A stretch of DNA of 64,000 bases from Gammaproteobacteria bacterium. GTDB taxonomy: Bacteria; Pseudomonadota; Gammaproteobacteria; JAIEPX01. The DNA lies in assembly GCA_019748175.1 (NCBI GenBank), contig JAIEPX010000012.1, forward strand, positions 132,413-196,412, in the 5' to 3' direction. The notes under the pieces are model-generated. The model saw nothing but the letters and a program-made list of their open reading frames with translations. It was not told the origin of the DNA and searched no databases. Shown in pieces: positions 1 to 58,651 of the stretch (within the stretch, counting starts at the first letter, position 1; each line of letters begins with the position of its first letter). The position numbers and the translations under genes were made by a program.

Positions 1-144
1 CATATCAAGGTCAGTTTTGTTGGATATTTCTATAGATCCAATGGTAACGCCAGCTCGATTGATGACTGCTTCCTTCGCGTCAGCTGCAAAAACTGAACTG
101 TGAGCAAGCAGAACTAAACTGAATCCTAAAATTTGTACTTTCAT
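1..144 (-). CDS. Partial CDS for the 5' end of a secreted protein of unknown function. The N-terminus MKVQILGFSLVLLAHSSVFA-ADAKEAV is a signal peptide. The gene runs off the left edge of the window.
   Basis: There is an ATG at 144..142 on the minus strand, preceded by AGGAAGAGG. The translation gives a hydrophobic h-region and a VFA-A cleavage motif. It is absent from the ORF track because only 48 codons lie in the window. Confidence 0.45.
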   Translation of the reverse strand, partial: MKVQILGFSLVLLAHSSVFAADAKEAVINRAGVTIGSIEISNKTDLDM

Positions 145-225
145 TGCCTCTTCCTTGAACAATAAACTTATCTTTAAGTAAAGCAGACCTTATGAGATTG
201 TCAAATTATGCTCTGTCTTTATCTA
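43..225. repeat. Left copy of a ~183-bp imperfect direct repeat, about 90% identical to 12793-12975.
   Basis: Direct alignment of 43-225 with 12793-12975 shows only scattered substitutions. The copy contains the RBS and first ~34 codons of the minus-strand secreted-protein gene, plus a TTGACA on the minus strand. Confidence 0.8.
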
Positions 226-237
226 TGAAAGAAATAA

Positions 238-2646
238 CTAAGACTTCACTCTAAGCGATAAAAGCCATGCTGATAACATATGAGTTAAACCAATACTCGT
301 AATAGGTTTTGTCAGTACATTATCGATTCCAGCTTGCAAGCACTTTTCTCTATCATTTTCGGAAGCATACGCAGTTAATGCTATAACGGGCGTATGATGA
401 TCATTTTTTTCTAACTCTCGAATTTTTTGTGTCACAACAAAACCATCCATATCCGGCAGCCCAATGTCCATTAAGATAAGATCGTAGGTATTCTTTTTAA
501 ACAACTTCAAGGCTAATATGCCATTATCAGCTACATCCGCTTTACAGCCCAAATCTTTCAAGAAATGAAGGACTACTCGTTGATTAATTAAATTATCTTC
601 GACGAGAAGAATTTTTGGATTAATATCGGCGAAAAGTTTTGAGGCATGTGTTAAACTTGCTTGATATTTTTCCCAGCAAGATGCTAAGTGCACTATAAAT
701 TTATTGTCATAACCGGCAATATGAATGAAATCAAAAATACCATTATCATTCTTTTCTAATTTTTGATTCTTATCAGAATAAAGTAATAACATAGGATTAT
801 ATAACGCAGGAAGAGCCTCCTTTAACTTGCCTAAATTTCCTTTATTATAAAAATGTGAATGGTTTGAAAGCAATATTAGCTGATAATGATGATTGCGTTT
901 TGCGGCATTTTCAAGAGCGTCAAATGCACTCGAACTTGACACTAAAGATACTGAAGAAGTATGGATAAGCTGTAATATTTTTGTGCCCACACTAAGATCA
1001 TCATCTACAATTAAAATTTTCACCTGAGCATACTTGCTTGCCCATAAATTTGATTTGTTAAGTTGAGGCTGGGCTGTAAATGTTAAATTTACTGTAAATG
1101 TTGTTCCCTTATTGAATTTACTATCAACGAAAATTTCACCTTTCATTAGTTCTACCAATTGCTTCACGATGGCAAGACCTAAACCTGTACCACTATGAAG
1201 CTTACTATAGGAAGAATCTAACTGACGAAAGCGGTCGAAAATTACCTCAATTTGATCTGAGGGAATACCAATACCTGTATCTTTAATGATAAAAGACAAT
1301 GTATATTTTCTATTCGACCTCTCTAAAAACTTCACTATCAAATCAGCTTTACCATGATCCGTAAACTTAACCGCATTACCTAATATATTAAGTAGTATTT
1401 GGTAAAGTCTTTGACTATCTCCAAGTAACAATGTCGGTACATCACCATCTATTTTTGTAGATAAAGTAATATTCTTTTGACCCGCCAGTGTTGATACTTG
1501 TTTTATTACACTATCAATTATGTACACTAAATCGAAAGGAGTATTAATGATTTCTAATTCACCGGCCTCAAGCTTTGAAAGATCAAGAATACTGTTGATA
1601 AGTGATAATAATGTTTTTCCAGAATTAGTGATATCTTCAACTAACAAGATTTGATCAGTTGAAAGCTTTTGTCTTGATAAAAGTTCGGTCATCCCGATGA
1701 TACCATTTAATGGCGTTCTTAATTCATGGCTAACCGTCGCCAAAAAGTCAGATTTGGCTTGATTTGCTATTTCAGCCTTTTCACGTGCCTCAACAAGTTC
1801 ATTTTCTTTCTTAACACGATCAGTAATATCTGTAGAAATACCAATGACACCGACAATCTTGCCATGTTCATTTCTAAACGGCACTCGAGTTGTAGTTTGG
1901 TAAATGATTTCACCATTAGAAGTTGTTAAGAAATTGATATTTTCGTTGGGTTTACCTGTTTTCATTACTTCCAGGTCATTTGATCGCCACAATTTTGCCT
2001 GTTCTTTTGGCCAATTTCGAATTTTAGCCATATCATAATACGTTAAACCTCTTACTTCTTTTCGAGAATTAAAACCGAGAATCTTTGCTAAATTATCATT
2101 ACAGCCTAGATTTGCAGAATTTTTATCGACCCAATAAACGTTAGAAGGTAAATGAGCTAAGATTCTATCTAACTGAAGTGCTGCAAGTTTAGTTTCTTTT
2201 TCAGCGGACCTAATCATTTTTTCCAATTGTTTTTCTTTCTTATTATGCTCTGTGATATCGATCATCTGAACGATGATGCCAGTCACTTTCTTTTTCACAC
2301 AGATAGGCTTATGTATACAAGACACTAGAATTTTTTTGCCTTTTTTCAACGGTATCCAGAGCACATGCTCATATTTTTTATTGTTTTCGAGCACTTTATT
2401 ATCATAAGACCTTAATTCTTCGAAGACACCCGCGTGAATTAAACTATTTTTTTGTATCTTGCTATAGTTTTTACCAAGTAATTTTTGTTTCGTTTTTAGG
2501 CCTAATAATTTCAACATGCTGTCATTGCAGCCTAAAATCACACCTGAGGCATCTTGCCAATAGATATAACTTGATAAATTCGCTATAATTTCACAAATAT
2601 TTTTTGTTTTCATGTCACCCTTCATGTTACTCAACGATGAGATCAT
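238..2646 (-). CDS. Hybrid sensor histidine kinase/response regulator. It has two PAS domains, HisKA and HATPase_c domains, a degenerate pseudo-receiver and a C-terminal REC domain.
   Basis: The H-box is HELRTPLNGIIGMTELL and the G-box is GTGLGLAIVKQL. A second REC domain has LILMDIGLPDMDG and a conserved TAYA/K. The PAS-like N-terminal halves contain YWQDASG and YWVDKNS. AGGAG lies 8 nt before the ATG at 2646. Confidence 0.85.
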   Translation of the reverse strand: MISSLSNMKGDMKTKNICEIIANLSSYIYWQDASGVILGCNDSMLKLLGLKTKQKLLGKNYSKIQKNSLIHAGVFEELRSYDNKVLENNKKYEHVLWIPLKKGKKILVSCIHKPICVKKKVTGIIVQMIDITEHNKKEKQLEKMIRSAEKETKLAALQLDRILAHLPSNVYWVDKNSANLGCNDNLAKILGFNSRKEVRGLTYYDMAKIRNWPKEQAKLWRSNDLEVMKTGKPNENINFLTTSNGEIIYQTTTRVPFRNEHGKIVGVIGISTDITDRVKKENELVEAREKAEIANQAKSDFLATVSHELRTPLNGIIGMTELLSRQKLSTDQILLVEDITNSGKTLLSLINSILDLSKLEAGELEIINTPFDLVYIIDSVIKQVSTLAGQKNITLSTKIDGDVPTLLLGDSQRLYQILLNILGNAVKFTDHGKADLIVKFLERSNRKYTLSFIIKDTGIGIPSDQIEVIFDRFRQLDSSYSKLHSGTGLGLAIVKQLVELMKGEIFVDSKFNKGTTFTVNLTFTAQPQLNKSNLWASKYAQVKILIVDDDLSVGTKILQLIHTSSVSLVSSSSAFDALENAAKRNHHYQLILLSNHSHFYNKGNLGKLKEALPALYNPMLLLYSDKNQKLEKNDNGIFDFIHIAGYDNKFIVHLASCWEKYQASLTHASKLFADINPKILLVEDNLINQRVVLHFLKDLGCKADVADNGILALKLFKKNTYDLILMDIGLPDMDGFVVTQKIRELEKNDHHTPVIALTAYASENDREKCLQAGIDNVLTKPITSIGLTHMLSAWLLSLRVKS

Positions 2647-2702: not shown

Positions 2703-2730
2703 TTTACATGTTAATATATTCCAGGCTATA
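2703..2730 (+). promoter_or_regulatory. Putative sigma70-like promoter for the NRPS gene: TTTACA, a 16-nt spacer, then TATAAT.
   Basis: TTTACA is at 2703-2708 and TATAAT at 2725-2730, within the 200-bp divergent intergenic region. No experimental support is available. Confidence 0.3.
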
Positions 2731-2847
2731 ATGAAACAATTTAAGAGACTTGCTTTCGTCCTGGATACACTTTACATCGTAGCGACCGTCAACTAAATAC
2801 TCTATCAAAGCAAGATTAGTATCTTACCTTCAGGATGTATTGATAAT

Positions 2848-5800
2848 ATGGCAAAGGCTACAAGTACTGAAAGTATTAAATGCGTCGTTATAGGCAAAAA
2901 CAGCCTCGCTTTGGAATGTGCGAGCCGGTTGTTTAGTAACCCAAATTTCACTCTAGTTTCAATTGTTTCACCTGATCCACAGCTCGAATCACTGGCTGTA
3001 TCGAATAATATTCCTTACTATAAAAACACAGACACTTGGATTCAATCAGAGCTAAAAACCAAAATTGATTATTTATTCAGCATAATTCATGAAGATATTT
3101 TGACTGACGAGATCCTCCAGCTACCTCGCCGGGGAGCTATCAATTTCCATGATAGCCCATTGCCCCGTTATGCAGGACTCCATGCAACATCATGGGCAAT
3201 TCTAAACAATGAAAGCACCCATGGAGTTACTTGGCATATGATGTCAGGCAAAGTTGATTCGGGGGATATAGTAAAACAAAAAAGAGTTGAAATACTCCCA
3301 GACGATACAGCACTCGTACTAAACATGAAATGTTATGAAGCCGGTTTAGAACTATTCAACGAACTGTTAGAAGATCTTCAACGTGTTTATCTTATCACTC
3401 AACCTCAAGATTTATCTAAGAGAACTTACTACGGATACACTGCTAAACCTCCACTAGGCGGAATCATTAATTTTAATGATACCAGCCAAAATATCTATCG
3501 CAGTTGGCGATCAATGTATTTTGGACATACTCTCAATGATTTTGCTTCCTGTAAGTTTTTTATCGGAACCCGATGTTTCATCATCCAGGAAATGCAAATT
3601 AAGGCCTCCAGTTCAGATTGTGAACCTGGTCAAATAATAGAAATTACTAATGACCACATTCAAATAGCCACCAAAACAGGCGATGTATTCATAACCTCAC
3701 TAAAAACCCTGGATGGGCACCCTTGTAATTTTCTTAATCTAAAAAAATTGACCCAATTAAGTGAAGGAGACACTATTTCTCACCATGATATCGCTCTAAT
3801 GGAAAAAATATCTTCTAAAATTACCCAATTATTTCCACATGAACGTTACTGGGTGGATGAGCTTTGCGCCATTAATCCCACAAGCTTTCCATACTTTTCT
3901 CATCCGACTACAAAATTTAAAATAACAAGCCAAAAAAAGCTTGATCTTGAACCTCTACTGAGCCACAAAAATCAACATTTTGATTGGGAAATTTCTTATC
4001 TATGCATTCTGTCAATATATTTATTTCGCATCACAAATAAAAATAACATAACACTAGGCATTTACAGACCACAACAAAATACTGAAATCAACACAAGTTT
4101 CTTTTCAGATATCGTTCCACTCAATCTGCATTTCGAACCTCAAGACACGTTTTTAGATTTATATGCTCAGATTGAAAAAAAAATAAATCAAGTAACTACA
4201 CATTCAACATTTTTAAATGACATTACCTATCGTTATCCTGACTTAACTGATATATCAACTAGTCATCCAGGAATATATCCGTGCCTAATCGAGTATATTA
4301 ACAAAAAAGAACCTCAATTAAAGTCACAACTAGAATTAACAACCTCATATTTCAAATTGACAATTGACACTGCCAACAGGGAATACGTACTTGCACTAGG
4401 TTCTTCTAAAAACGAAGAAATTAAACCTAAAGAATTATTAGATAAAATACATTCTCATCTCTTTAATTTGCTTGATTCTATCAAAAATAATATTTTAACA
4501 CCAATTATTGCTCATTCATATTTAGATAAAAAAGAAATTCAACAATTACTACCTGCAAAGATAGATGATACAAAAAATATTCTTAATTCAAACGTTATAC
4601 AACTCTTTAAGGAGCAAGTTAATCGTTATGGAAATCATCTCAGCATAATTTCCTCTGAACACTCATTAACTTATGAAGATCTGGATAACCAATCTAATCA
4701 CCTTGCAGCGTATATTCTAGAGCATGTAAAATCCCCGCAAAAATCAATAGCTTTAATAATGAATCAGTCTGATACTGCAATTATATCGATGCTTGCAATA
4801 CTAAAAATTAATTGCATATATGTTCCACTAAACCCAGATAATCCTACAAACAGACTGCGATATATTCTTAAAGACGTTGATGCTGCAATGGTTCTCACTA
4901 ATACCCAGAATTTACAAGTAACTCATGCATGCACTGAAAACCTCAATATTCCGGTACTTAATGTTGAGAATACTGAAATACTTGACCAATACTCACTACC
5001 TACAAATCATCAAGTCAAAATATTACCTGATGACCTGGCGTACATATTATACACTTCAGGATCAACAGGTGATCCCAAGGGCGTTCAGATTTACCATAAA
5101 GGAATTGTGCGATTAGTCAAGGAGCAAAATTATGTACAGTTTACTCAAAATGATATTGTTGCTCAATTCACTACGCTAATTTTTGATGTATCAACTTTTG
5201 AAATTTGGGGAGCATTACTGAACGGATCCACCTTATTTATCATTGATAAAACTCTAGGTTTAGAACCAGAAAAATTACATAATATTATTAGAGATAATTG
5301 TACAATCTTGTTCATGACCCCAGCAGTTTTCGTGGAAGTTTATAAAGCCGAGCCAGATACTTTTGATAACCTGAGAATATTGATTCTAGGAGGAGAAGTT
5401 GTTCGAAGTGAAGATGTTCGAAGGCTTTTAAAGAGAAAAGAAGAGCTGAATCTAAATCTCACTATCATAAACGGGTATGGCCCTACTGAAAATACAACTT
5501 GGTCAACATATTATACTATCGATAAACTCAAACCAGGTCGTGATAGCATCCCAATTGGAAAATCTATTTCATACAGCTCAGCTTATATACTTGATAATTA
5601 TTTCAATCTACTTCCAGTCGGAGTTCCAGGCGAATTGTATCTAGGAGGACTTGGAATCGCTAAAGGTTATATTAACCACGAACAACTGACTCAAAAAGCA
5701 TTTATTAAAGACCCGTTTTCAAAGGGCAATACACTGTATAAAACTGGCGACATAGTGAAAATGCTACCAGATGGGAACATTCTTTTCATTTCTCGAATAG

Positions 5801-8800
5801 ATAGTCAAGTTAAAATAAAAGGAATTAGAGTCGAATTAGGTGAAATTGAAAGTTGGCTGTTAAAATATCATTCTGTCAAACAGGGAGTTGTCGTCTCCAA
5901 ACCAATTAAATCAAACAGACATCAATTAATTGCATATATTGTACCAGAAAGTCAACATTTCAACATAGTTGAATTGCAACATTACTTGTCTCAACATTTG
6001 CCAGAATACATGGTACCCTTACAGTATGTCATCATCGATAATTTTCCTTTGTCACCTAGCAAAAAGATTGACCATTCAAAACTGCCTGATCCATTACCTC
6101 TTGATGCAAAGAACTATCAAGCTCCACGAAATGATAAAGAAGCCTTATTAGTCAAAATATGGAGTCAAATATTAAGAATAAAACACATAGGCAGAAATGA
6201 TAATTTTTTTGCAATGGGTGGCGACTCAATCATCGCAATGCAAATAATCACAAAAGCGTACCATGATGGCTGGAAATTAAAAGCAGCTGATATTTTTCAT
6301 TACCCCTGCATATCAAAACTTGCCCCACGTCTAAAACCAATACAATCAAAGACGTCAAATGAAAGTATAACAGACACGATTGAAGGAAATATCCCCTTAA
6401 CACCAATTCAACATTGGTTTTTCGAGTCTGCATATTCCATGACATCAAGTTTTAGTCAATATGTATTACTTAAATTAGATGCAAAACCAGATGAATCAAT
6501 TATTGAAAAAACCTTCGACGCACTTATTCAACACCATGACATCTTACGAACCTTCTATGAGAATTCAGAAGGTCACTGGCAACAAACTATTAATAGCATA
6601 GTTGAACCATTCAAAGTAAATCACGACACACTTGCCAGCAAAAAGTATGACTCTAAAATTGCTGAAATGGAAAGTAAAATATCTAAAACATACTCTAAAT
6701 TTAAACTAGACCAGCCTCCTTTAGTGAGATGTGTACTGTTTAGCGGATCAAATGATAATTACCTCGCAATAATCGCACACCATCTAGTAATTGACGGGGT
6801 TTCTTGGAGAATATTCTTAGACGATTTCTTCATGGCATACCATACTTATTATCATAACAAAACAATTCCACTTCCAATAAAATCATCCTCTTTTAAATCA
6901 TGGAGTAAGTACCTCTGTGAATTTTCATCATCAATTACCTTGTTAAATGAAACCAATTACTGGCTACAGCAATCATCTGATAATGAAATACCAACTGATT
7001 TTAGACGAGGCGAAAATACTGAGAAAAATGCAAAAACTATCGAAAGTGAACTCGACCTTACCAATATAAGCTTAACATATAAGCAAGTAAGCGCGAGGGA
7101 TATATTAACTACAGCATTGGCAATCACATTGTGTGATTATTTTGATCTAAATGAAATTAATTTTTACATGGAGAGCCATGGTCGTGAAACCTTCAATAGC
7201 AAACTTGATTTATCACGGTCTATGGGATGGTTTACCTCTCTTTCACCTATAAAATTATCATTAGAATCTTCACAAAATAAAATTCAATATTTAAACATGC
7301 TCAGAAATGTCCGTAAAAAAATTGGCAATATTCCGCGACAAGGCATTGGCTTTGGATTAGTCAAATATCTTACAGAAGATCTTAACACTCGCAAAATAGT
7401 GAATGACATCTTAGTTTCCTCAATGTGTTTTAATTTTCTTGGGAATTTTGATGCTGGGATCAATACTAGTGACATGCAATTGGTTGGACGCCCAATTAGA
7501 TTAACAGACTCGGCGACTTCTTTACGGCAATTTTTGATTGAATTAACAGCGTGGATCAAAAACGATAAGTTACATTTGGAATGGAAATATAGTGCTAATT
7601 ATTACAAAGCCTCTACAATCCAAGCAGTTTCCAACCACTACATAAAAAATATTAATTCTATCGTTTCTCAATGTATCAATTCACTATCACAAACGTTGGT
7701 GTCTCACGACTTCCCACTAGCCTCCCTCACTCAGGAACAATTAAGTATCTGCATTACTAAATACCCTAATTTAGAAAATATTGCTCAGCTTTCTTCGTTA
7801 CAAAGTGGTTTGTTGTTCCACCACTTACAATATCCTGACAGTAATATTTATCACTCTCAATATATTTGGACAGATACCCGCGCTTTAGATTTGCGGGTAT
7901 TTAAAAAGGCTTGGGAAACCATTATCAAACGCCATAGTATATTTAGAACCACCTTCCTTTGGAAACATTTCAAATCTCCTATTCAGATTGTCGATTCAAC
8001 GATCAAATTACCGTGGAAAAATTATATTTGCTCTTCATTATCACGAGAAGCAAAAAAGGCGATGATAAATGCGATACTTCGCGAAGATCAAGAACGTTAT
8101 TTTGACTTTTCAGATCATCCTCTGATGCGATTAAGTATTATTCAAACCAACCCAAGTACATACGTCATAGTTTGGACACATCATCATATTTTACTTGGCG
8201 CGTCTAGTATAAAAAATGTCATTTCAGAATTATATCTAATATACCACGCCCTTCTTTCAGATCAACAATACTACCTACCTCCAGCGGTACCTTTTTCCGA
8301 ATACATCGCTTATCAAAATCAAAAATTTAATCATAAATTAAGTAAGCGTTTTTGGATAAAATACTTAAATAGATTTAATAGTATCGCAATAACAAAATTA
8401 CTCGGTGAAATTCATGAAAATACATCCCCGGACTTTCATCAACATGAGTTCGTAATACCCGATAAGTACGCATCTAAAATCAAAAAGTTTTCAAAGTCCT
8501 GCAACACCTCGCTTAACACCGTAATGTTATACGCATGGGCTTTACTGATCTCACGATACACTGACTCATTGGACATTAGCGTCGGTGTTGCGATTTCAAC
8601 AAGACCTAATGATTATTTCACTAATGAAAGCATCATCGGTCCGCTCATTAATACACTACCGTGCAGAATTACACTCGAAGATGATGAGCCATTGCAGCAA
8701 TCACTTAAGCGGATAAATGACAACATCCTTGATATAACACAACATTCTCATACAGCACTGTTAGATATCTATAAGTGGCTTAAACGAAATACACAAGACC

Positions 8801-11800
8801 AACTTTTCGATACGCTTTTCGTTTTTGAGAATTACCCCTTGGATTTTATTGATGAACATATCAGTGAATTAAAAGTCAACGCGATTACTCATTATCCACT
8901 CGTCCTTAATGTATACCCTCATGATAAAATTCAACTGGTTATGACATATAACAAAAATGTTATATGTACAACTATAATTGAAAACATTATGACAAATTAT
9001 TACCACACCCTCTGCGAAATTATTGATGATAATATACGTAATACTAAGGATATTGATATACTTTCAATTACTGAATCATCATTGCTAAAAAACTCTTGGA
9101 ACCATCGAAAATCAGATTATCCTCATTTCACTATCACGAACCTTTTTACGGAAATAGCAAACCTATATCCATCTAAAACTGCGATCACCTATCAAAATGA
9201 AAAACTGACGTACGATAAACTTGATAAAGTGACCAATCGCTGGGCTAATTATCTCCTTGAAAATGGTTTAAACAAGGGTGATGTTGTCGCTGTTTATATT
9301 GATAGAAGTATTGAAATGGTAATTGCCCTTTTAGCAATACTTAAAGCTGGGGGTGTTTATTTACCAATTGATACAACTTACCCCACCTATAGGGTTAATT
9401 ACATACTCGATGATGCGGGTGCTAAATTCATATTCACTCAATCTTCATTATTAGGTATTATCGATCCTAAATATCTAAGCCTATCCATTGATATTCTTAA
9501 TAGCAACCTTATTACAACTGTTTATGACAACCTCCCATTAATAGAATTATCCTATAGTGATCTGATTTATATCATTTATACCTCAGGCACTACAGGCTTG
9601 CCAAAAGGCATACAGATTCAACACAAAAGTGTAATCAATACAATCTACTCAATATTTAGAGAATTAAAACTTTCTTCAAATGATAAATTACTATCATTCA
9701 CAAGTATCTCATTTGACATATCTGCACTCGAAATATTTGGGCCATTGCTTTGGGGAATGGAGCTTGAAATTGCAAGCTCTGAATCTACAAAAACTAATTC
9801 TTCTCTCACTAAACTTATGAACGAAAGCTCTCCAACTATAATTCAAGGTACCCCTAGTCTTCTATTCTTAATGGTAAATGCGGGTTGGAAACCTAAAAAA
9901 GGAATTAAAATCATCTCGGGTGGAGAGACGCTCACGCAAAGCTTGGCTAATTCAATCTTAGCTATGGGTGCAAATTTATGGAATGTATACGGACCTACAG
10001 AAACGACAATTTGGTCTACTATCTCTCGTGTATATTCAAATAAAAAGATCGTAATAGGTAAACCTATTGCAAATACAGCTATCTATATCTTAGATCAAAG
10101 ACAAAAAATAGCACCGATTGGCGTTCCAGGAGAGCTTGTAATTGGTGGAGATGGTATAACTCCAGGATACATTAATAGACCCGAACTAAATAAGAAACGT
10201 TTTATTCCAAACCCCTATTCTAGCTCAGTAGCAGAAAGACTGTATCGCACAGGTGATTTAGCTAGGTGGCTACCTTCAGGCGAACTAGAGTTTATTGATC
10301 GACTAGACAATCAAGTTAAAATACGTGGGTATCGAATTGAACTAGAAGAAATTCGTACTATCTTACTAAAATTCACATCGATCAAAGATTGTGTTGTATT
10401 AAAAGTTGGGGATAATTATAATGAAGCTCATTTGAAAGCATTTTTCACTTTAAAAAATCCAAATATGAATTTTGACATATCAGACTTACGCACGCATCTC
10501 GCTTCATATTTACCGTACTACATGATTCCTGATGAGTTTATTCCCGTTGAAGGGATACCAATCAATACAAATGGAAAGGTCGATAAAGAGCAAATCTTGC
10601 AACTATATGCATCTCATCATAAAAAAGACATCGGGAATTATAACCCCGTTGAAAACCCGACCGAACAACTAATCTTAAATCTATTTAATAAAGTACTCTC
10701 TGCAAAAAATATTGAACCTAATGATAGTTTTTTTGAACTCGGTGGTAATTCTATCTCAGCAATTCAGATATTATCGAATATACAAGATTGCTTCTCAATA
10801 TCTTTATCTTTGCCTGATATTTTAACCTTACAAACTCCACGACAATTAGCCAAAGCTATAATTCATAAAAAATTTCAAAATCTTGATAGCTACGAAAACA
10901 TCACTTCTCCTATAGTTGGTTTACAATTAAAAGGAGATAAACCACCATTATTTTTAATTCACCCTGTAGGTGGAACAATATTCTGGTTTGTTAAACTCGC
11001 ACAATATTTAGGTAAAGATCGACCAATTTATGGATTACAAGATCCTGCTTTATCTACAGAGAGAGCTCATTTTTCTACTTTCGAAGCAATGGCTACATTC
11101 TATGCTAAAGAAATTAAAAACATTCATCCAAATGGTCCTTATCTTCTGGCAGGTGCATCCTTCGGTGCAAATATGGCAGCAGAAATCGCAAAACAATTGA
11201 TCGCTGAAGGTAAAAAAGTCTTATTTGTAGGACTACTAGATGGGTGGGCAGAATACCCTGACGAAGTTTCTACACATCGTTTTTTGAAAAAAGAGATGAA
11301 AGCGCAGTATAATGAGCTAAAGAAGAAACTTCCTGAAGTTAATAATAACAGTATTAAACCTATTATTGACTTTGCATGGCATCGTTCACATTTACTTGAT
11401 GCCTATAGTCTCGATTGGATTGATTGCCCTCTAGTACTATTCAAAGCGAAAAGTACCTTAAGTATTTTCTCTGACATCGAGTCCCCAAGTAACCACTGGA
11501 CAGGAAGGACTCCATACTTAAAAACCATTATAGCCCCAGGTAACCACGAAACTATGTTTTTCGATCCAAATGTTGAAACACTAGCCAAACAAATAAACAC
11601 TGCTATTCATGATAGTGAAAATATGGGAAATCACGATTCTCACAATAATGCATTTTTCAATGATTCAGATATATCTTATCCAAGAATAACTGTGATTGAG
11701 ATGTTCGAATCCATTGCTGAAAAAGAATATAGCTCATTTGCCGCAGTAAACAATGGGATATGCTTGACGTATGAAAAATTAAATAATCTGGCAAACCAAC

Positions 11801-12792
11801 TCTCTCACTATCTTATAGATTTGGATATCACACAAGGTGATATAGTTGGTATTTGCCTGAATCGTGATTTTGATTTACTCATTGCTATTCTGGCTGTCTT
11901 AAAATCTGGCGCCGCTTTTTCACCCATAAACTGTGATATAACTCCTAGTAGTATCGATTCTGTCCAACTAAGTTGTAGAGCAATCATTACAGAAAAAGAT
12001 TTTCTGAGAAAATTCAGTACTCTTGATAACAAAATGATCTGCCTCGATAGGGACTGGCAGTTTATTCGACTCAAATCAAGTGATAACCCATTAATACCTA
12101 TTAATCTCGATGATATAGCAATCGTTATACCAACATCTCACTCACAGCACAGCCAAACACGCATTTTGGTCAGCCACAGAAACATCAGTATTTTAACACA
12201 ATGGTCTTTGTCACAATTCACAAAAGAGGAACTATCTGGCGTATTAGCTTCAAATCACCATTACAATGAAATGTCGTTATTTGAAATATTCCCAGCTTTA
12301 TGTGCTGGAGGAACAGTACATCTTGTAAGAGATATAGAAAATCTATCGGAAGTCCCTTTTTCCAATAATATTACACTGATTTCTATCACACCAGCACAGT
12401 TAAATAACCTTTTATATACTGATCAATTACCTCAATCTGTACGAACTATCATTTTACAAACTCGCTCGGTGGATAATGCTGCTATCTCAAATATTGTAAA
12501 TACATCCCACGTTATTAAATTATGCAACGCCTTTATCAATATGGAAGTCGGCCAACTCACTCCAGGATTATTACCGAAACCTATCAATACACAGACAGTC
12601 ATTGGAAAGCCAATACCTAACGCAAAATTAGTCGTACTTAATAAAAACTTAGAGACCCTCCCTGCTGGATCCCCTTCAGAAATGAACAAATTTGGATATG
12701 TACTCTGTTTAGGCTATTTGAATTTTTCTGATTTCACAACTGAAGAATTACTTACCAATCCTAATTTACAATCCTCAATTTCAAATGAGTAA
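2848..12792 (+). CDS. Bimodular non-ribosomal peptide synthetase with an N-terminal formyltransferase-like (F) domain. Domain order is F-(unassigned ~280 aa)-A1-T1-E-C-A2-T2-TE, followed by a degenerate A-domain N-terminal stub.
   Basis: The F domain has FHDSPLPRYAG and HMMSGKVDSGDIV (Fmt-like). A1 has LAYILYTSGSTGDPKG, NGYGPTE, YKTGD and KIKGIRVELGEIE. T1 has FFAMGGDSI and the E domain has HHLVIDGVSWRIF. The C domain has HHILLGASS. A2 has YIIYTSGTTGLPKG, YGPTETT, YRTGD and KIRGYRIELEEI. T2 has FFELGGNSI and the TE has GASFGAN. Residues ~2945-3314 keep A1/A2-like cores (LTYEKL, LKSGAAFSPIN) but lack cores A3 and A5-A10. Confidence 0.9.
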   Translation: MAKATSTESIKCVVIGKNSLALECASRLFSNPNFTLVSIVSPDPQLESLAVSNNIPYYKNTDTWIQSELKTKIDYLFSIIHEDILTDEILQLPRRGAINFHDSPLPRYAGLHATSWAILNNESTHGVTWHMMSGKVDSGDIVKQKRVEILPDDTALVLNMKCYEAGLELFNELLEDLQRVYLITQPQDLSKRTYYGYTAKPPLGGIINFNDTSQNIYRSWRSMYFGHTLNDFASCKFFIGTRCFIIQEMQIKASSSDCEPGQIIEITNDHIQIATKTGDVFITSLKTLDGHPCNFLNLKKLTQLSEGDTISHHDIALMEKISSKITQLFPHERYWVDELCAINPTSFPYFSHPTTKFKITSQKKLDLEPLLSHKNQHFDWEISYLCILSIYLFRITNKNNITLGIYRPQQNTEINTSFFSDIVPLNLHFEPQDTFLDLYAQIEKKINQVTTHSTFLNDITYRYPDLTDISTSHPGIYPCLIEYINKKEPQLKSQLELTTSYFKLTIDTANREYVLALGSSKNEEIKPKELLDKIHSHLFNLLDSIKNNILTPIIAHSYLDKKEIQQLLPAKIDDTKNILNSNVIQLFKEQVNRYGNHLSIISSEHSLTYEDLDNQSNHLAAYILEHVKSPQKSIALIMNQSDTAIISMLAILKINCIYVPLNPDNPTNRLRYILKDVDAAMVLTNTQNLQVTHACTENLNIPVLNVENTEILDQYSLPTNHQVKILPDDLAYILYTSGSTGDPKGVQIYHKGIVRLVKEQNYVQFTQNDIVAQFTTLIFDVSTFEIWGALLNGSTLFIIDKTLGLEPEKLHNIIRDNCTILFMTPAVFVEVYKAEPDTFDNLRILILGGEVVRSEDVRRLLKRKEELNLNLTIINGYGPTENTTWSTYYTIDKLKPGRDSIPIGKSISYSSAYILDNYFNLLPVGVPGELYLGGLGIAKGYINHEQLTQKAFIKDPFSKGNTLYKTGDIVKMLPDGNILFISRIDSQVKIKGIRVELGEIESWLLKYHSVKQGVVVSKPIKSNRHQLIAYIVPESQHFNIVELQHYLSQHLPEYMVPLQYVIIDNFPLSPSKKIDHSKLPDPLPLDAKNYQAPRNDKEALLVKIWSQILRIKHIGRNDNFFAMGGDSIIAMQIITKAYHDGWKLKAADIFHYPCISKLAPRLKPIQSKTSNESITDTIEGNIPLTPIQHWFFESAYSMTSSFSQYVLLKLDAKPDESIIEKTFDALIQHHDILRTFYENSEGHWQQTINSIVEPFKVNHDTLASKKYDSKIAEMESKISKTYSKFKLDQPPLVRCVLFSGSNDNYLAIIAHHLVIDGVSWRIFLDDFFMAYHTYYHNKTIPLPIKSSSFKSWSKYLCEFSSSITLLNETNYWLQQSSDNEIPTDFRRGENTEKNAKTIESELDLTNISLTYKQVSARDILTTALAITLCDYFDLNEINFYMESHGRETFNSKLDLSRSMGWFTSLSPIKLSLESSQNKIQYLNMLRNVRKKIGNIPRQGIGFGLVKYLTEDLNTRKIVNDILVSSMCFNFLGNFDAGINTSDMQLVGRPIRLTDSATSLRQFLIELTAWIKNDKLHLEWKYSANYYKASTIQAVSNHYIKNINSIVSQCINSLSQTLVSHDFPLASLTQEQLSICITKYPNLENIAQLSSLQSGLLFHHLQYPDSNIYHSQYIWTDTRALDLRVFKKAWETIIKRHSIFRTTFLWKHFKSPIQIVDSTIKLPWKNYICSSLSREAKKAMINAILREDQERYFDFSDHPLMRLSIIQTNPSTYVIVWTHHHILLGASSIKNVISELYLIYHALLSDQQYYLPPAVPFSEYIAYQNQKFNHKLSKRFWIKYLNRFNSIAITKLLGEIHENTSPDFHQHEFVIPDKYASKIKKFSKSCNTSLNTVMLYAWALLISRYTDSLDISVGVAISTRPNDYFTNESIIGPLINTLPCRITLEDDEPLQQSLKRINDNILDITQHSHTALLDIYKWLKRNTQDQLFDTLFVFENYPLDFIDEHISELKVNAITHYPLVLNVYPHDKIQLVMTYNKNVICTTIIENIMTNYYHTLCEIIDDNIRNTKDIDILSITESSLLKNSWNHRKSDYPHFTITNLFTEIANLYPSKTAITYQNEKLTYDKLDKVTNRWANYLLENGLNKGDVVAVYIDRSIEMVIALLAILKAGGVYLPIDTTYPTYRVNYILDDAGAKFIFTQSSLLGIIDPKYLSLSIDILNSNLITTVYDNLPLIELSYSDLIYIIYTSGTTGLPKGIQIQHKSVINTIYSIFRELKLSSNDKLLSFTSISFDISALEIFGPLLWGMELEIASSESTKTNSSLTKLMNESSPTIIQGTPSLLFLMVNAGWKPKKGIKIISGGETLTQSLANSILAMGANLWNVYGPTETTIWSTISRVYSNKKIVIGKPIANTAIYILDQRQKIAPIGVPGELVIGGDGITPGYINRPELNKKRFIPNPYSSSVAERLYRTGDLARWLPSGELEFIDRLDNQVKIRGYRIELEEIRTILLKFTSIKDCVVLKVGDNYNEAHLKAFFTLKNPNMNFDISDLRTHLASYLPYYMIPDEFIPVEGIPINTNGKVDKEQILQLYASHHKKDIGNYNPVENPTEQLILNLFNKVLSAKNIEPNDSFFELGGNSISAIQILSNIQDCFSISLSLPDILTLQTPRQLAKAIIHKKFQNLDSYENITSPIVGLQLKGDKPPLFLIHPVGGTIFWFVKLAQYLGKDRPIYGLQDPALSTERAHFSTFEAMATFYAKEIKNIHPNGPYLLAGASFGANMAAEIAKQLIAEGKKVLFVGLLDGWAEYPDEVSTHRFLKKEMKAQYNELKKKLPEVNNNSIKPIIDFAWHRSHLLDAYSLDWIDCPLVLFKAKSTLSIFSDIESPSNHWTGRTPYLKTIIAPGNHETMFFDPNVETLAKQINTAIHDSENMGNHDSHNNAFFNDSDISYPRITVIEMFESIAEKEYSSFAAVNNGICLTYEKLNNLANQLSHYLIDLDITQGDIVGICLNRDFDLLIAILAVLKSGAAFSPINCDITPSSIDSVQLSCRAIITEKDFLRKFSTLDNKMICLDRDWQFIRLKSSDNPLIPINLDDIAIVIPTSHSQHSQTRILVSHRNISILTQWSLSQFTKEELSGVLASNHHYNEMSLFEIFPALCAGGTVHLVRDIENLSEVPFSNNITLISITPAQLNNLLYTDQLPQSVRTIILQTRSVDNAAISNIVNTSHVIKLCNAFINMEVGQLTPGLLPKPINTQTVIGKPIPNAKLVVLNKNLETLPAGSPSEMNKFGYVLCLGYLNFSDFTTEELLTNPNLQSSISNE

Positions 12793-12894
12793 GGTGACGT
12801 CAGCTCGATTGATGACTGCTTCCTTCGCATCTGCCGCAAAAACTGAACTTTGAGCAAGTAGAGCTAAACTGAATCCTAAAATTTGTACTTTCAT
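12781..12894 (-). pseudogene. Truncated remnant of the secreted-protein gene 5' end (37 codons) inside the right-hand repeat copy. It overlaps the NRPS stop codon.
   Basis: The minus-strand ATG at 12894 gives MKVQILGFSLALLAQSSVFAADAKEAVINRADVTLLI*, a near-identical signal peptide to the 1..144 ORF. It ends after ~34 homologous residues. Confidence 0.5.
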
Positions 12895-12975
12895 TGCCTC
12901 ATCCTTGAACAATAAACCTATCTCTAAGTAAAGCAGACCTTTAGAGATTGTCACATTGCGCTGTGTCTTCGTCTA
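12793..12975. repeat. Right copy of the ~183-bp direct repeat. It begins 1 nt after the NRPS TAA.
   Basis: It aligns along its whole length to 43-225. The flanks on both sides are unrelated. Confidence 0.8.
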
Positions 12976-13064
12976 GATTCGACCTTTTTCACACATCAGT
13001 TAATATTATCTTAAGGTTCTATGGGTAATATATCCGATTATTGTATGAAAAGCTTGGGGATTGT

Positions 13065-13859
13065 ATGAACGAAAGTACTCCTGTAAAAGAACCTATCGAT
13101 AAATCAGACCTTGTAAAACACTTTGAAGCCGGGGATTTACTGTTTGGGTTAGAAAACGAAGCTCGAGCCCTTTACTATGAAATTATTCGTCTTCAGTTAA
13201 GTAAATCAGACTCAACAATATTGTTTATCACCGTGGATGACATCAATAAAGAACTCTCTGCAGAATATATGTTTGGTGCAGAGGCTGAATCGCCAAAAAA
13301 TAAACAAACACAATATAATGCTTTTGCACAAAGACATCTTGATTCATGGAAAGCACACAAGAAGTTTGCTCCGAAAATGATTACTGAGAAAGGTGAAGCA
13401 AGAGCAGACAAAGCATTTATTTATTCTTGTAAAGTGGCTCTTTTAACACACAGCAGTAAAATACATTTCTGTTTAGACTTCTTCCAGCCCGAAGCTATAC
13501 GAAACAAAGCACACGACAACTATAAAAGTTACACATCCAAAGAATTAAGACTCTGTGCTAAAAATTGGGAACAAGTTAAAAATAGAGTTGTGTTTTATAT
13601 GGATGGCATGAGATGCAGTCCTCCTTGGGGAGAACGTGAACCTCTTGAGTGGTTAAATGACAAGAGTTCAATGACTCAATCCAGTGATTTAGATCAGAGT
13701 AGCCCATTACCTGAAGCATCACTTAAAACGCCACCTCATGGGAGTCAAAATTTTTTCAAAATGCCCACTTCAATATCCCCAGATTCAGATATCACGGAGA
13801 CCTCTCAAGAAAGTAAAAAAGATATCGATGCCATTGCAAAAAAGAAGTTGGATTTCTAA
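13065..13859 (+). CDS. Hypothetical protein. The ORF-track start at 13041 is TTG; the ATG at 13065 (MNESTPV..) is the likelier start.
   Basis: GGGGA lies 5 nt upstream of the ATG at 13065. No recognisable domain was found. The C-terminus is polar, Ser/Glu-rich. Confidence 0.5.
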   Translation: MNESTPVKEPIDKSDLVKHFEAGDLLFGLENEARALYYEIIRLQLSKSDSTILFITVDDINKELSAEYMFGAEAESPKNKQTQYNAFAQRHLDSWKAHKKFAPKMITEKGEARADKAFIYSCKVALLTHSSKIHFCLDFFQPEAIRNKAHDNYKSYTSKELRLCAKNWEQVKNRVVFYMDGMRCSPPWGEREPLEWLNDKSSMTQSSDLDQSSPLPEASLKTPPHGSQNFFKMPTSISPDSDITETSQESKKDIDAIAKKKLDF

Positions 13860-13914: not shown

Positions 13915-14859
13915 TTAGTCTAAACATAACAGAGATTCGCGCGTAAAATATTCTTCTTGATAATGAGAGCGAACCCATTTTTTATAAAGTTCTAGTGCCT
14001 CAGTTTCAATACTTGCGATTCGCGTAGAATTGCCTTTATTATGCACTATAGTATTCTTAATATAGTCTTTCATTGTTAAAATTGAATCAAATGATTCATT
14101 TAAGAGTGATGCAAGCTGATTTCCATGTAATGCATTGAATGAATCATTTAAATAGTACTTCCCAAGCCTTTCCGCAAGAAGTATAGCGAAATAGGCTTCA
14201 TAAAGATATTTGTAGAAAAGTCTGCCGCTCTTTTCAACTTGGCCAAAATACTTGAATAAAGGAAGATTGAGATTAGCCAACATCAAAAATCCTGCAGCCC
14301 CGAATTGCCTTCCAATAATATATAAGTTACCGCTAAATTTATTATACTCACTAAGATCAACTTTTTTATCTTCCGCTAGCGCCCTATCTGCTAAAACAAT
14401 AATTTCATTTAAATAATCACAAAATGCGTGAAAATTATAGCTTGAGAGAGCTTTCATTAAGTAAAGTTTGGATGTGGCTTGACCTGAAGTAGTCTGTACT
14501 CTTTGTAACTCAAGATGTTTACTATAATAAAAAACACCTTTAATTAAAAAATAACTTAATAGGCTAGACTGTGGCTTTAATTGATAACATGCAAGTTGAC
14601 CATCCAATTCTAACAAAGATAGATAATCTTCTGAAGTGATAAGCGTATCCCAAAAACTACTGAGCGTATCGTCACAGCAAAGCGTCTCTAAATCTGCTTC
14701 CAGACTCGTGGCTTCCAAAAACATGGGAAGTGACTGAACTGCATAATATTGAACAAAATCAATAAGAACGTCGTTCGACTGTTTTTTAGCCAACACTCTT
14801 TGATGTAAATCTCTAAATTTTTCTACAATAGAATTATGCGATAATCCTTTCTTATTCAT
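13915..14859 (-). CDS. Hypothetical protein of 314 aa.
   Basis: There is a long ORF with a strong AAGGAGG RBS before the ATG at 14859. No recognisable motif was found. Confidence 0.55.
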   Translation of the reverse strand: MNKKGLSHNSIVEKFRDLHQRVLAKKQSNDVLIDFVQYYAVQSLPMFLEATSLEADLETLCCDDTLSSFWDTLITSEDYLSLLELDGQLACYQLKPQSSLLSYFLIKGVFYYSKHLELQRVQTTSGQATSKLYLMKALSSYNFHAFCDYLNEIIVLADRALAEDKKVDLSEYNKFSGNLYIIGRQFGAAGFLMLANLNLPLFKYFGQVEKSGRLFYKYLYEAYFAILLAERLGKYYLNDSFNALHGNQLASLLNESFDSILTMKDYIKNTIVHNKGNSTRIASIETEALELYKKWVRSHYQEEYFTRESLLCLD

Positions 14860-56206: not shown

Positions 56207-58651
56207 TCACAAAGAAAAATCACTCACGCTATTAATATCACTAGGTAATTGGTCTGCCTCAAACAGTGAACGGAAGACACTAAGGGCATTATCGAGAGTT
56301 AAAGACTTCAGTTTCACAGGATAGTTCAACTGAGTGACTAGTATACCAATGAAAATTTCAAGAAATTTTGCTGAAAAGACATTTGCAGGTCTTTTATCGA
56401 TAAATTCAAAAATTTCACGAGCCATTCTTACTTTGCTGAAAATACTCAGCTCGCATCGTCTCAAAAGATCTTTTGCTTTGCTCACTTCATCTGCGTATTC
56501 GCTGTCCAACCCGTATGTTGATGAGAAAAAGTTGATTTGACTCGGTTGATTTTCAAAAGATTCAAATTCTTTGATAGCGTTTGAGATTGCATCGATGAAA
56601 AGTCTATTTTCGCGAAATATAATAAATTGATCAGACTGCTGAACAAGCGAGTGTGCGTAAGAGTATTCTTTAAGCCTACAAAAATCATAAAACTCTTGAA
56701 GCTTTTTTAAAAAATCATCTCGACAATTTAAAACACCTTTAAGAATAGTGAACACTGAATACGGTTGTAATGAAACCGAATTTATGTCATTACATAATGA
56801 TGTAATTTCACTCTGTATAGATTCATTTCTTGCTTCATCTGGAACAGCGCTCAAGACCACCAAATAATATATTAATTTTTGTCGTTGATAACCGCTTACG
56901 GTTTGTTTTTCTTGTATTATGTGAAATAACTCGCATTGTTGCAGAGTCCTGTACAAATAATAGGCTAACTCTGCATTTTGAGGTAATTCGAGCTGATGAC
57001 TTCCACTAACTGAACCCATAAAAAATTGAAGAACCGTTGAAAACCCACTATAGCACACTGGCGCGTTAATTATCCTCTGTAGCAAACTATTAATTCGAGG
57101 TTGTAATATTCCGCGGTAGTACAATAACAATTTTTGAGAATGGAACGGGCCTATTTGATCACTGACCTGATCTTTCTTATCTTTTTCAGCAGAACTTCCT
57201 TGTTTCTTTGGGGCTTGAGACTCACCCAATTGAAGCTCAACTCGTATGTCATCTGCAAACTGCCAAAAACTTTTTGCCTCAACAATAACTTTATCTTTCT
57301 CTGACCCTTCAAGTTGATCTGCTAGCTCTAAAGAATCATCCATTGCTTCTATGGCCAGTTTTCCCAACTCATATAAAAAGCATTTTAATTCTTCTCTTCT
57401 TCTTAACGATTTTCCTAACAATGAAAATTGTTCTGGAATTTTCGAATCAACCAGGGATAAAACCCATTGCATTCTAACTCGGCGCGCTGTGAAATGATCA
57501 TGAAGAAGATAGAAACGAATTAGAGCATCAAATCCTATTTCTGCGCTCTGCTCTTTCAAAAAATCAGGACTGATAGCAACGCCATAGTAATATAAAATAA
57601 ATCCATAGTGATCATTTTTTTGGATTGCTGAATTAGACATTAAATTGTAAAATTGTGCTTTTATAACATCACATAAATGTTCTTTACGAAGTCTATGACA
57701 GGTCAAATAAGCTCTATGTAATAATTGAGCAGCTATTTTGATGTTGTCATTGTCAGGTGCGAGCGCTTTAATTCTTTTTTCTGCAACATTGACCAACCCA
57801 AATGGATCTCCTAGAACTGCAACACCCTTTACGTCTATCTTGATCTGTGTTGTTTTGACTTCTTGGTATTTATTATCAAATAGGCTTTTAGTTGCGCTAT
57901 CATCTTCACCATTATTCGAATTTAACTCAGCTTCAAGTAGCTCTATCGCAGTGATCAATTTTTTAATATCTATCTGTCTTTTAAGACCTAAATTAATACC
58001 CAAACTATCGCTCTCTTCAAAGCCTTTTAGAAGTATCCCTTTAACAGCAGAATAACCAGAATGTCTTGTACTCTTTAATCGAGCTTTACTCACTTCATTA
58101 TTTAAAAACATTTCAACTTGTTGAAAGTGTGCCTCAGGGTTGTAATCATCAATTAACGCTTTTTCAAAACAGTCCCAAGCAAAAGAAAAATTAGGCTTAC
58201 CTTCGTGCTGTCCGTGCCCTTTACGCGCCATAATTCCAAGAAAAAGCCATGCATCTTTTTGACTCAATGAAACTGCAAGTTCAAAATAATGCTTTGCCCG
58301 TGCATCATCCTGTTGTATACCAGCACCTAAATATTGAACGACACCTAATAACGTTGCTACTTTAGCTGTTTCTCCTAAAGTACCAGTATAAGTTTGTGGG
58401 ACTGCAATCTCTTTCCTATTTCTACAGAGTCGCAAAGGTACTTTTATATGCATTCGTTCGTATGATCTGCACACGACAAGCATTCGACTTGTCTGATTTG
58501 CAGTGAGCTCAAAATGTAAACAGTGATACAGTAATTGTTTAAATTCTTTTATATCTTTGAAAACTGCATTTCTGACCTTCTCTTCAAAGCGATTTAACTC
58601 TGCTAAAGATGAGGAATTGTGTTGTTCTGATTCGCTTTGTTTACCTTGCAT
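56207..58651 (-). CDS. Large (814-aa) mostly alpha-helical protein with Sel1-like repeats. It is effector-like and lies immediately downstream of ccmI.
   Basis: LGVVQYLGAGIQQDDARAKHYFELA... and LFLGIMARKGHGQHEGKPNFSFAWDCFEKA resemble Sel1/TPR repeats. The start overlaps the ccmI stop by ~11 nt. Confidence 0.55.
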   Translation of the reverse strand: MQGKQSESEQHNSSSLAELNRFEEKVRNAVFKDIKEFKQLLYHCLHFELTANQTSRMLVVCRSYERMHIKVPLRLCRNRKEIAVPQTYTGTLGETAKVATLLGVVQYLGAGIQQDDARAKHYFELAVSLSQKDAWLFLGIMARKGHGQHEGKPNFSFAWDCFEKALIDDYNPEAHFQQVEMFLNNEVSKARLKSTRHSGYSAVKGILLKGFEESDSLGINLGLKRQIDIKKLITAIELLEAELNSNNGEDDSATKSLFDNKYQEVKTTQIKIDVKGVAVLGDPFGLVNVAEKRIKALAPDNDNIKIAAQLLHRAYLTCHRLRKEHLCDVIKAQFYNLMSNSAIQKNDHYGFILYYYGVAISPDFLKEQSAEIGFDALIRFYLLHDHFTARRVRMQWVLSLVDSKIPEQFSLLGKSLRRREELKCFLYELGKLAIEAMDDSLELADQLEGSEKDKVIVEAKSFWQFADDIRVELQLGESQAPKKQGSSAEKDKKDQVSDQIGPFHSQKLLLYYRGILQPRINSLLQRIINAPVCYSGFSTVLQFFMGSVSGSHQLELPQNAELAYYLYRTLQQCELFHIIQEKQTVSGYQRQKLIYYLVVLSAVPDEARNESIQSEITSLCNDINSVSLQPYSVFTILKGVLNCRDDFLKKLQEFYDFCRLKEYSYAHSLVQQSDQFIIFRENRLFIDAISNAIKEFESFENQPSQINFFSSTYGLDSEYADEVSKAKDLLRRCELSIFSKVRMAREIFEFIDKRPANVFSAKFLEIFIGILVTQLNYPVKLKSLTLDNALSVFRSLFEADQLPSDINSVSDFSL

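Follow-up and report, generated by a model that had tools for sequence, protein, structure and literature searches.

The window analysed here is a 64,000-nucleotide stretch of the 206,919-bp contig JAIEPX010000012.1, from the assembly GCA_019748175.1 of a gammaproteobacterium. Close to its left end lie a gene for a nonribosomal peptide synthetase (NRPS) and, transcribed divergently from it, a gene for a hybrid histidine kinase (Table 1). The NRPS gene is a single uninterrupted open reading frame (ORF) of 9.9 kb, and its product is identical to NCBI entry MBX9586952.1, from a metagenome-assembled genome (MAG) named Gammaproteobacteria bacterium. All of the strings quoted in the original prediction, which had been made from the letters of the DNA, are present in the translation of this ORF: NFHDSPLPRYAG, HMMSGKVDSGD, HHLVIDGVSWRIF (at amino acid (aa) 1311), HHILLGA (aa 1779) and GASFGAN (aa 2769).

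The whole protein and ten overlapping segments of it were scanned against Pfam with the curated cut-offs, and every named NRPS domain scores above its cut-off. These comprise Formyl_trans_N (72.5 bits) and Formyl_trans_C (34.5 bits), two full AMP-binding plus AMP-binding_C domains (248.9 and 275.7 bits for AMP-binding), two PP-binding domains (45.2 and 55.9 bits), two full-length domains of the Condensation fold (221.1 and 245.5 bits), and a Thioesterase domain (82 bits against a cut-off of 26.4). The formylation (F), adenylation (A), thiolation or carrier (T), epimerisation (E), condensation (C) and thioesterase (TE) assignments made originally are thus borne out by domain hidden Markov models (HMMs). 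The order F-A-T-E-C-A-T-TE, however, is not the complete protein: two segments, together about 18% of its length, had been left out. One is a remnant of a condensation-domain C-terminal lobe (Cl) between F and A1, and the other is a catalytically dead adenylation core (Ax) that follows the TE.

Table 1. Features of the window, with positions counted from its first nucleotide.
Feature	Position	Strand	Description
Direct repeat, left copy	43..225	.	183 nt; covers the 5' end of a signal-peptide gene and the region upstream of it; the gene is on the minus strand and continues beyond the window
Hybrid histidine kinase gene	238..2646	-	Cytoplasmic tandem-PAS kinase, PAS-PAS-HisKA-HATPase-REC; conserved NRPS partner
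Sigma-70-like promoter	2703..2732	+	TTTACA-18-TATAAT in the divergent intergenic region; TATAAT invariant in four orthologous loci
NRPS gene	2848..12792	+	ATG start; 3314 aa
F domain	2848..3747	+	aa 1-300; two-subdomain formyltransferase of ArnA/Fmt type; triad N99, H101, D137
Cl	3835..4572	+	aa ~330-575; condensation-domain C-terminal lobe remnant linking F to A1
A1	4585..6102	+	aa 580-1085; pocket code DVFFIGGTWK; A10 Lys present
T1	6130..6342	+	aa 1095-1165; MGGDSI, Ser1127
E domain	6370..7737	+	aa 1175-1630; HHLVIDG, ESHGRE, MGWFTSLSP, GIGFG, FNFLGN
C domain	7765..9087	+	aa 1640-2080; DCL-like start LSSLQSGLLFH; C3 motif HHILLGA, Asp replaced
A2	9130..10632	+	aa 2095-2595; pocket code DILQIGVIWK (Gly type); A10 Lys present
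T2	10645..10887	+	aa 2600-2680; LGGNSI
TE	10915..11682	+	aa 2690-2945; Ser2771 (GASFG), Asp2798, His2900
Ax	11710..12789	+	aa ~2955-3314; adenylation-core fold with degenerate A3, A4 and A5; four-member clade only
Direct repeat, right copy	12793..12975	.	90% identical to the left copy; begins immediately behind the NRPS stop codon; truncated 57-codon stump of the same signal-peptide gene (ORF 12781-12954, minus strand)
DUF4917 protein	42103-43086		Adjoins the AbiE pair
AbiEi antitoxin and AbiEii nucleotidyltransferase toxin pair	44821-46499	-	Low-GC stretch (0.31-0.34)

Domain functions and predicted product

The F domain is fused in a single chain to A-T, carries the HxSxLPxxxG motif, and has a catalytic triad that is invariant in all ten family members aligned. 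Among solved structures its best match is the ArnA formyltransferase (84-91 bits, over both subdomains, aa 49-278), ahead of sugar N-formyltransferases (57-61 bits) and Fmt (39-53 bits). The F domain of LgrA, the linear gramicidin synthetase, scores 35-37 bits and aligns over the N-terminal half only (aa 66-173). The top NCBIfam matches are ArnA, PRK06988 and fmt, with scores far under the equivalog cut-offs (121.8 vs 777; 86.7 vs 201.5). An LgrA-like F domain is therefore not what is found here; the gramicidin comparison is valid for function but not for family membership. Fusion to an NRPS implies that the substrate is a carrier-bound amino acid and not a sugar nucleotide or a tRNA, and the formyl group would presumably come from N10-formyl-tetrahydrofolate.

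F does not abut A1 directly, because the 245-aa Cl segment lies between them. Cl gives a weak Pfam Condensation match and aligns to the C lobe of LgrA; by hhalign it matches the family C domain at columns 193-447 (probability 98%, E 2.4e-13), whereas the control profiles of A1 and TE give 0.1% and 2.3%.

Both A domains retain the motifs of active enzymes. In A1 and A2, respectively, A3 reads YTSGSTGDPKG and YTSGTTGLPKG, A5 reads NGYGPTE and NVYGPTE, and A7 reads YKTGD and YRTGD; A8 is recognisable in both (RIDSQVKIKG, slightly variant, and RLDNQVKIRG). The catalytic A10 lysine, K517, whose loss would have spoken for inactive A domains, is aligned in both. Pocket codes were read by aligning all A domains to a fragment of GrsA; as a control, GrsA itself returns its published code, DAWTIAAICK. 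The A2 code departs from DILQLGMIWK at positions 299 and 322 only, and published Gly codes, the set DILQLG[LMV]IWK among them, vary at positions 299, 322 and 330 (PMC12283262), so that A2 is predicted to be of Gly type. The A1 code, identical in the relatives P0002 and P0003, agrees with Val-type DAWFIGGTFK at 7 of 10 positions, with Ala-type DVFWLGGTFK likewise at 7, and with Met-type DVFYLGGVFK at 6, and no exact match to it is present in the supplement of PMC12283262. A small or medium hydrophobic residue is predicted as its substrate, and nothing narrower is justified.

The assignment of the E domain was confirmed by its HMM: the segment scores 95.6 bits against TIGR01720 (cut-off 74.2), it is the sole NRPS segment to match, the second C-type domain not doing so, and motifs E2 and E4 to E7 are intact. 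Both carrier domains have the GGxS phosphopantetheine site. The GGDSI form, seen at T1, is typical of carrier domains that partner an E domain. In two more distant relatives, P0020 and P0022 (~38% identity), the E domain has lost the second His of HHxxxDG (HSLIADY and HTLTTDY) together with E4 and E5; these lines probably keep an L-configured first residue despite the retained E domain.

Downstream of E, the C domain matches Pfam Condensation over profile positions 3-452 of 456. It opens with a motif of the LSxxQxGLLFH type, which work by Rausch et al. in 2007 is said to have tied to the DCL subtype. The loss of Asp from its C3 motif, reported in the original prediction, is real: in place of the canonical HHxxxDG the sequence reads HHILLGASS, with both His kept, the Asp replaced and GW changed to AS. 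The form HHILLG[GA] is common to seven relatives, down to 36% identity, and is HHILLGG in six, while HHILLDG occurs in outgroups and more distant relatives. The domain is 59-63% identical to those of three full-length orthologues, a value exceeded only by T1, T2 and TE. Since the whole clade has the Asp-less motif and yet keeps C as one of its best conserved domains, the loss does not look like a sign of decay, and this argues for a C domain that is working, if atypical. In the TE, the motifs GASFG, LLDGW and GNHETMF around the catalytic triad are shared by 13 relatives.

Beyond the TE come the ~360 aa of Ax, which match Pfam AMP-binding with 93.8 bits (profile positions 5-383) and, among solved structures, best match the A domain of McyA (E 1e-46). 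Its A3/P-loop (PTSHSQHSQTR), A4 and A5 (NAFINME) are degenerate, it scores 140.8 bits against TIGR01733 (cut-off 317.4), and in the window it ends after an A6-like stretch, with no A7-A10, no C-terminal subdomain and no T domain. Ax occurs only in the window protein and three full-length relatives, and a HMMER search with it against 1.84 billion representatives returned only giant multi-A NRPSs and the P0002 cluster; its orthologues are thus confined to this four-member clade. Within the clade it is 40-53% identical, which is comparable to F (50%), and it is therefore maintained, although by its motifs it cannot adenylate. An AlphaFold2 model built from only these four sequences has a pLDDT of 37. 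Descent of Ax from A1 or A2 by duplication was considered and rejected, its nearest solved relative being a McyA-type A domain and its A4-A5 alignment to A1 and A2 being poor. The 272-aa ORF at 13041-13859 was likewise rejected as a missing end of Ax, for it has no family match and no similarity to the orthologous loci.

We conclude that the window NRPS is an intact and probably functional two-module synthetase. Our preferred reading, at a probability of roughly 60%, is that it makes N-formyl-D-Xaa-Gly and works with the adjacent cytoplasmic tandem-PAS hybrid kinase. A1 would load a small or medium hydrophobic L-amino acid on T1, the ArnA/Fmt-type F domain would formylate the amino group of the T1-bound residue, and E would then epimerise it. 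The DCL-type C domain would couple the D-configured formyl-aminoacyl donor to Gly loaded by A2 on T2, and TE would release the product, of ~200 Da, by hydrolysis, with Cl and Ax non-catalytic. Hydrolytic release would be the simplest outcome, since the formyl cap removes the sole amine and leaves none for cyclisation or oligomerisation. The logic proposed originally, in which F-A-T-E and then C-A-T-TE yield an N-formylated dipeptide with a D-configured first residue, holds on the predicted domain functions.

Several points weigh against this reading. The C3 motif is without an Asp that is structurally important in those C domains that have been studied, and the A1 code is ambiguous among the Val, Ala and Met types. 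The TE could pass the peptide to a nucleophile other than water, and the scheme leaves Ax unaccounted for. The 64-kb window contains neither a Sfp-type phosphopantetheinyl transferase (PPTase) nor an MbtH gene, although in each of three orthologous loci a PPTase gene adjoins that of the kinase. Lastly, a product has been observed for no member of this NRPS family.

Family distribution and the linked kinase

An alignment of the F domain was scanned against one genome per species, and architectures were assigned with family-built domain HMMs to the best 80 of the 273 loci with NRPS-fused relatives and to the protein hits. The F-Cl head is the standard form: it is present in the 273 loci of the species-representative genomes, and occurs also in synthetases of Photorhabdus, Xenorhabdus, Mycetohabitans, Paraburkholderia and cyanobacteria. 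The commonest architecture is the one-module F-Cl-A-T-TE (~25 of the best 80 loci), which is found in Legionella feeleii, L. maceachernii, L. nautarum, L. bononiensis, L. nagasakiensis, L. drozanskii and L. jamestowniensis. The two-module form F-Cl-A-T-E-C-A-T-TE makes up a smaller class and is represented by 14 protein clusters, 9 of which have a Gly-type A2. There is no described product for these one- and two-module F-NRPSs. A formyl amino acid has been predicted from the Legionella F-A-T-Red enzyme of 'cluster C' (Tobias et al. 2016, PMC5126622).

One A code, DAWQFGLIDK, is common to the one-module enzymes of eight loci from Legionella species and Legionella MAGs (L026, L028, L035, L046, L048, L063, L071 and L077). 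It is a published Gln code (PMC8313283), and the Legionella one-module enzymes are thus predicted to make N-formyl-Gln. A PAS hybrid kinase lies immediately downstream in all of these eight loci except L035. Elsewhere in the family, P0004 (locus L003) has the codes DPLLMGGNMK and DVSMLSAIWK, where its syntenic sister P0002 has DVFFIGGTWK and DILQLGMIWK, which suggests a recent change or loss of specificity. The MAG CAVQQD01 (MFD00731.bin.1.206) carries at least five F-NRPS loci (L011, L022, L033, L037 and L050), each with a nearby PAS-kinase homologue, and several of its NRPS ORFs look frameshifted.

The divergent PAS hybrid kinase of the window, seen already in the original prediction, is real. 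It contains no hydrophobic or transmembrane segment, and the NCBIfam matches of its core include BarA, LuxQ and LetS. Between HATPase and the scored REC domain (aa ~545-675) there is a receiver-like stretch (VKILIVDDD...) that Pfam does not call and that may be a degenerate pseudo-receiver.

When the window kinase was used as a tblastn query against all of the retrieved loci, a homologue with 31-40% identity (over PAS-HisKA-HATPase) was found beside F-NRPS genes. Of the Legionella and other gammaproteobacterial loci with enough flanking sequence, essentially all have it next to the F-NRPS, one-module enzymes included, whereas in other phyla only 2 of ~50 F-NRPS loci have a match. The same partner kinase family is present in L. 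feeleii, where it has the form PAS-HisKA-HATPase-REC-Hpt, and in L. maceachernii, L. bononiensis, L. nagasakiensis, L. drozanskii and L. jamestowniensis. Each of the three orthologous loci has the kinase gene between an Sfp-type PPTase gene and the NRPS gene, and their outer flanking genes differ. Kinase and NRPS diverge in L012, L085 and L087, as they do in the window clade; in cultured Legionella and in L033, L037 and L041 they are co-directional, the kinase lying 275-600 bp downstream and in one case overlapping the NRPS stop by 4 nt. A reciprocal metagenome scan, started from a four-sequence alignment of the kinase sensor, gave three loci, and a divergent F-Cl-A-T-TE gene is present in both of those with visible upstream DNA. 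A protein search with the sensor region, limited by its word index, gave one match.

That the linkage survives in two gene orders and with NRPSs of two sizes supports functional coupling of NRPS and kinase, although not a direction for it. The proposal that the kinase is the candidate regulator of the NRPS gene is accordingly upheld as regards the partnership, for which conserved synteny is strong evidence, but the regulatory direction does not follow from linkage.

Two explanations of the coupling can be set against each other. In the first, the kinase would be an ordinary cluster-situated regulator that responds to an unrelated intracellular cue and acts on NRPS transcription via an unlinked response regulator. 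This would fit the conserved synteny, the conserved -10 element in the divergent promoter region, and the fact that metabolic cues are commonly integrated by PAS hybrid kinases. On the other hand, the downstream, co-oriented position of the kinase in many loci, with the overlap at one NRPS stop, looks like co-expression and not control, and no output regulator is linked; we regard this explanation as possible, but less likely than not.

In the second, NRPS and kinase would be a signal-synthase/receptor pair. If so, a small N-formyl peptide such as N-formyl-D-Xaa-Gly, or an N-formyl amino acid in the case of the one-module relatives, would serve as the signal, and the PAS domains would bind it as its receptor, a logic like that of LuxM/LuxN or CqsA/CqsS. 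The gene linkage survives rearrangement between divergent and co-directional orders, no DNA-binding regulator is conserved alongside, one MAG holds at least five such pairs, and the kinase is of phosphorelay type, with REC and, in L. feeleii, Hpt. Against this, the kinase has no membrane segment, unlike the known autoinducer receptors of like gene layout, and neither an exporter nor an importer is conserved. A single code is common to the one-module enzymes of Legionella, which so give no sign of signal diversification, and a plain relation of regulator and target fits the linkage equally well. We consider such a pair rather unlikely. The broader proposal that the small F-NRPSs and tandem-PAS kinases constitute, in Legionellales-like gammaproteobacteria, a hitherto unrecognised module for signalling by small molecules is offered as speculation of similarly low probability. 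The linkage nonetheless provides a concrete hypothesis, be it regulation or signalling, and one that is directly testable, since the pair is present in cultured Legionella.

It had also been suggested that the product might be aimed at formyl-peptide receptors of a host. The N-formyl group is in keeping with such a target, as is the presence in the window of genes for a 1007-aa ankyrin-repeat protein and other orphan proteins, and were A1 to activate Met, as the partial code match would allow, the product would start with formyl-Met. Potent agonists of these receptors are, however, fMet peptides of three or more residues, whereas only a dipeptide is predicted here, its first residue D-configured and its second Gly. 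No secretion or host-targeting gene is linked, the enzyme family is found also in free-living Acidobacteria, Chloroflexi and cyanobacteria, and the gene conserved beside the NRPS encodes a cytoplasmic sensor of bacterial type. The suggestion thus finds no support, and we consider it very improbable.

With N-formyl-D-Xaa-Gly as the preferred product, the gene of the window, taken alone, amounts to a well-supported but unremarkable prediction of biosynthesis, in which two structural features are odd: the C domain lacks the Asp, and a dead A core comes after the TE. Of greater interest is the family, whose formyl-amino-acid and formyl-dipeptide synthetases are numerous and uncharacterised and in Legionella-like bacteria are tied to one kinase family. 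These enzymes appear to be well represented in intracellular and amoeba-associated lineages (Legionella, Rickettsiales, Holosporales and Paracaedibacteraceae). A 2022 review described F domains as "very scarcely observed" and listed only three products (PMC8949500), in contrast to the genome-level abundance of F-NRPSs, at 273 loci, found here. If the domain predictions are true, a whole unexplored class of tiny N-formylated metabolites would exist.

Genomic surroundings

The two copies of a 183-nt direct repeat bracket exactly the kinase and NRPS genes, with the NRPS stop codon at the junction. The repeat has the appearance of a scar left by a recombination event that put this cassette in place or moved it. 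The Ax segment of the window is ~45 residues shorter than in P0002 and P0004, and recombination at the repeat may have clipped the end of the NRPS gene. Recent transfer was considered on grounds of composition and rejected: the overall GC content of the cassette is lower, but its GC content at third codon positions (GC3) equals that of housekeeping genes (0.28, against 0.29 for alaS).

In the three orthologous loci the PPTase gene (L001, 6655-7395; L003, 6724-7416; L004, 6575-7285) is convergent with the kinase gene and overlaps its end. The corresponding position in the window is occupied by the repeat and a different gene.

These observations bear on whether the cassette is decaying or inactive in this organism, or whether the line halts after module 1 at a dead C domain, so that nothing, or N-formyl-D-Xaa only, would be made. 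The changes in C3, the shortened Ax with a stop codon that abuts the recombination scar, and the absence of the PPTase from its usual place all point in that direction. However, the reading frame is unbroken over its full length, the remaining catalytic residues are all in place, C ranks with the most conserved domains throughout the Asp-less clade, and GC3 equals that of housekeeping genes. We therefore judge decay or early arrest to be improbable, and retain an active enzyme that makes N-formyl-D-Xaa-Gly as the preferred reading.

The rest of the window consists mostly of housekeeping genes, among them alaS, recX, recA, mutS, scpAB, dapA, rib and ccm genes, and no Rfam match was found in the window. 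Interspersed with these are ORFs for the ankyrin-repeat protein, a DUF5630 protein and large orphan proteins (23606-26629 and 13041-13859 on the plus strand; 13915-14859, 31407-33680, 34835-35890 and 56207-58651 on the minus strand). Several of the orphans are without a family match and one has a weak Sel1 repeat. This set is compatible with a host-associated lifestyle, but is not proof of it. By its RecA, which is at most 93% identical to those of other MAGs, the organism is placed no more closely than among uncultured Gammaproteobacteria.

Comparison with known systems

The closest functional parallel is LgrA of linear gramicidin synthesis (F-A-T-C-A-T-E; PDB 5ES5 and 6MFZ). Both enzymes have an N-terminal formyltransferase fused to A-T and a Gly-specific second module, the first residue being aliphatic and formylated (specificities and formylation being predictions for the window enzyme), and the window A1-T1 aligns to the LgrA A-T with 323 bits. 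They differ in that the F domains are distant, as described above, and in that, by alignment, the A domain of LgrA starts near residue 204 after a short F with no Formyl_trans_C subdomain and no C-lobe remnant. Moreover, the window line has E after module 1 and TE after two residues, whereas LgrA hands its product to three more synthetases.

For the F domain itself the best solved match over both subdomains is the N-terminal formyltransferase of ArnA, and with ArnA and Fmt it shares the N-H-D triad and HxSxLPxxxG; the difference is the fusion to an NRPS. Other F-initiated NRPSs include those of anabaenopeptilide (ApdA) and kolossin A, and the F-Cl-A-T head is present also in synthetases of the other genera and the cyanobacteria named above. 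Those enzymes are long and multi-modular, whereas the window line is minimal: it has two modules, the first of which contains E, then a TE and a trailing dead A core, and a kinase gene is linked to it. The monomodular F-NRPSs of Legionella (F-A-T-Red of 'cluster C', PMC5126622, and F-Cl-A-T-TE) are alike in the F-Cl head and the partner kinase family, but they have one module, a Gln-type code, and no E, C or Ax.

The arrangement of T with GGDSI, a full E domain and a downstream C domain with the LSxxQxGLLFH start resembles that of GrsA and TycA, A-T-E proteins followed by a DCL domain, from which the window line differs in its predicted N-formylated donor and in a C3 motif without Asp. As for the linked kinase, a small-molecule synthase gene adjoining that of a hybrid (phosphorelay) histidine kinase is also seen in LuxM/LuxN, AinS/AinR, CqsA/CqsS and Legionella LqsA/LqsS. 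Here the synthase is an NRPS and the kinase is soluble with tandem PAS domains, and the resemblance to these autoinducer pairs is one of gene layout only. The F-initiated NRPS is thus a known kind of enzyme, and the form found in the window appears distinct by virtue of the E domain in its initiation module, its TE, the trailing Ax and the linked kinase.

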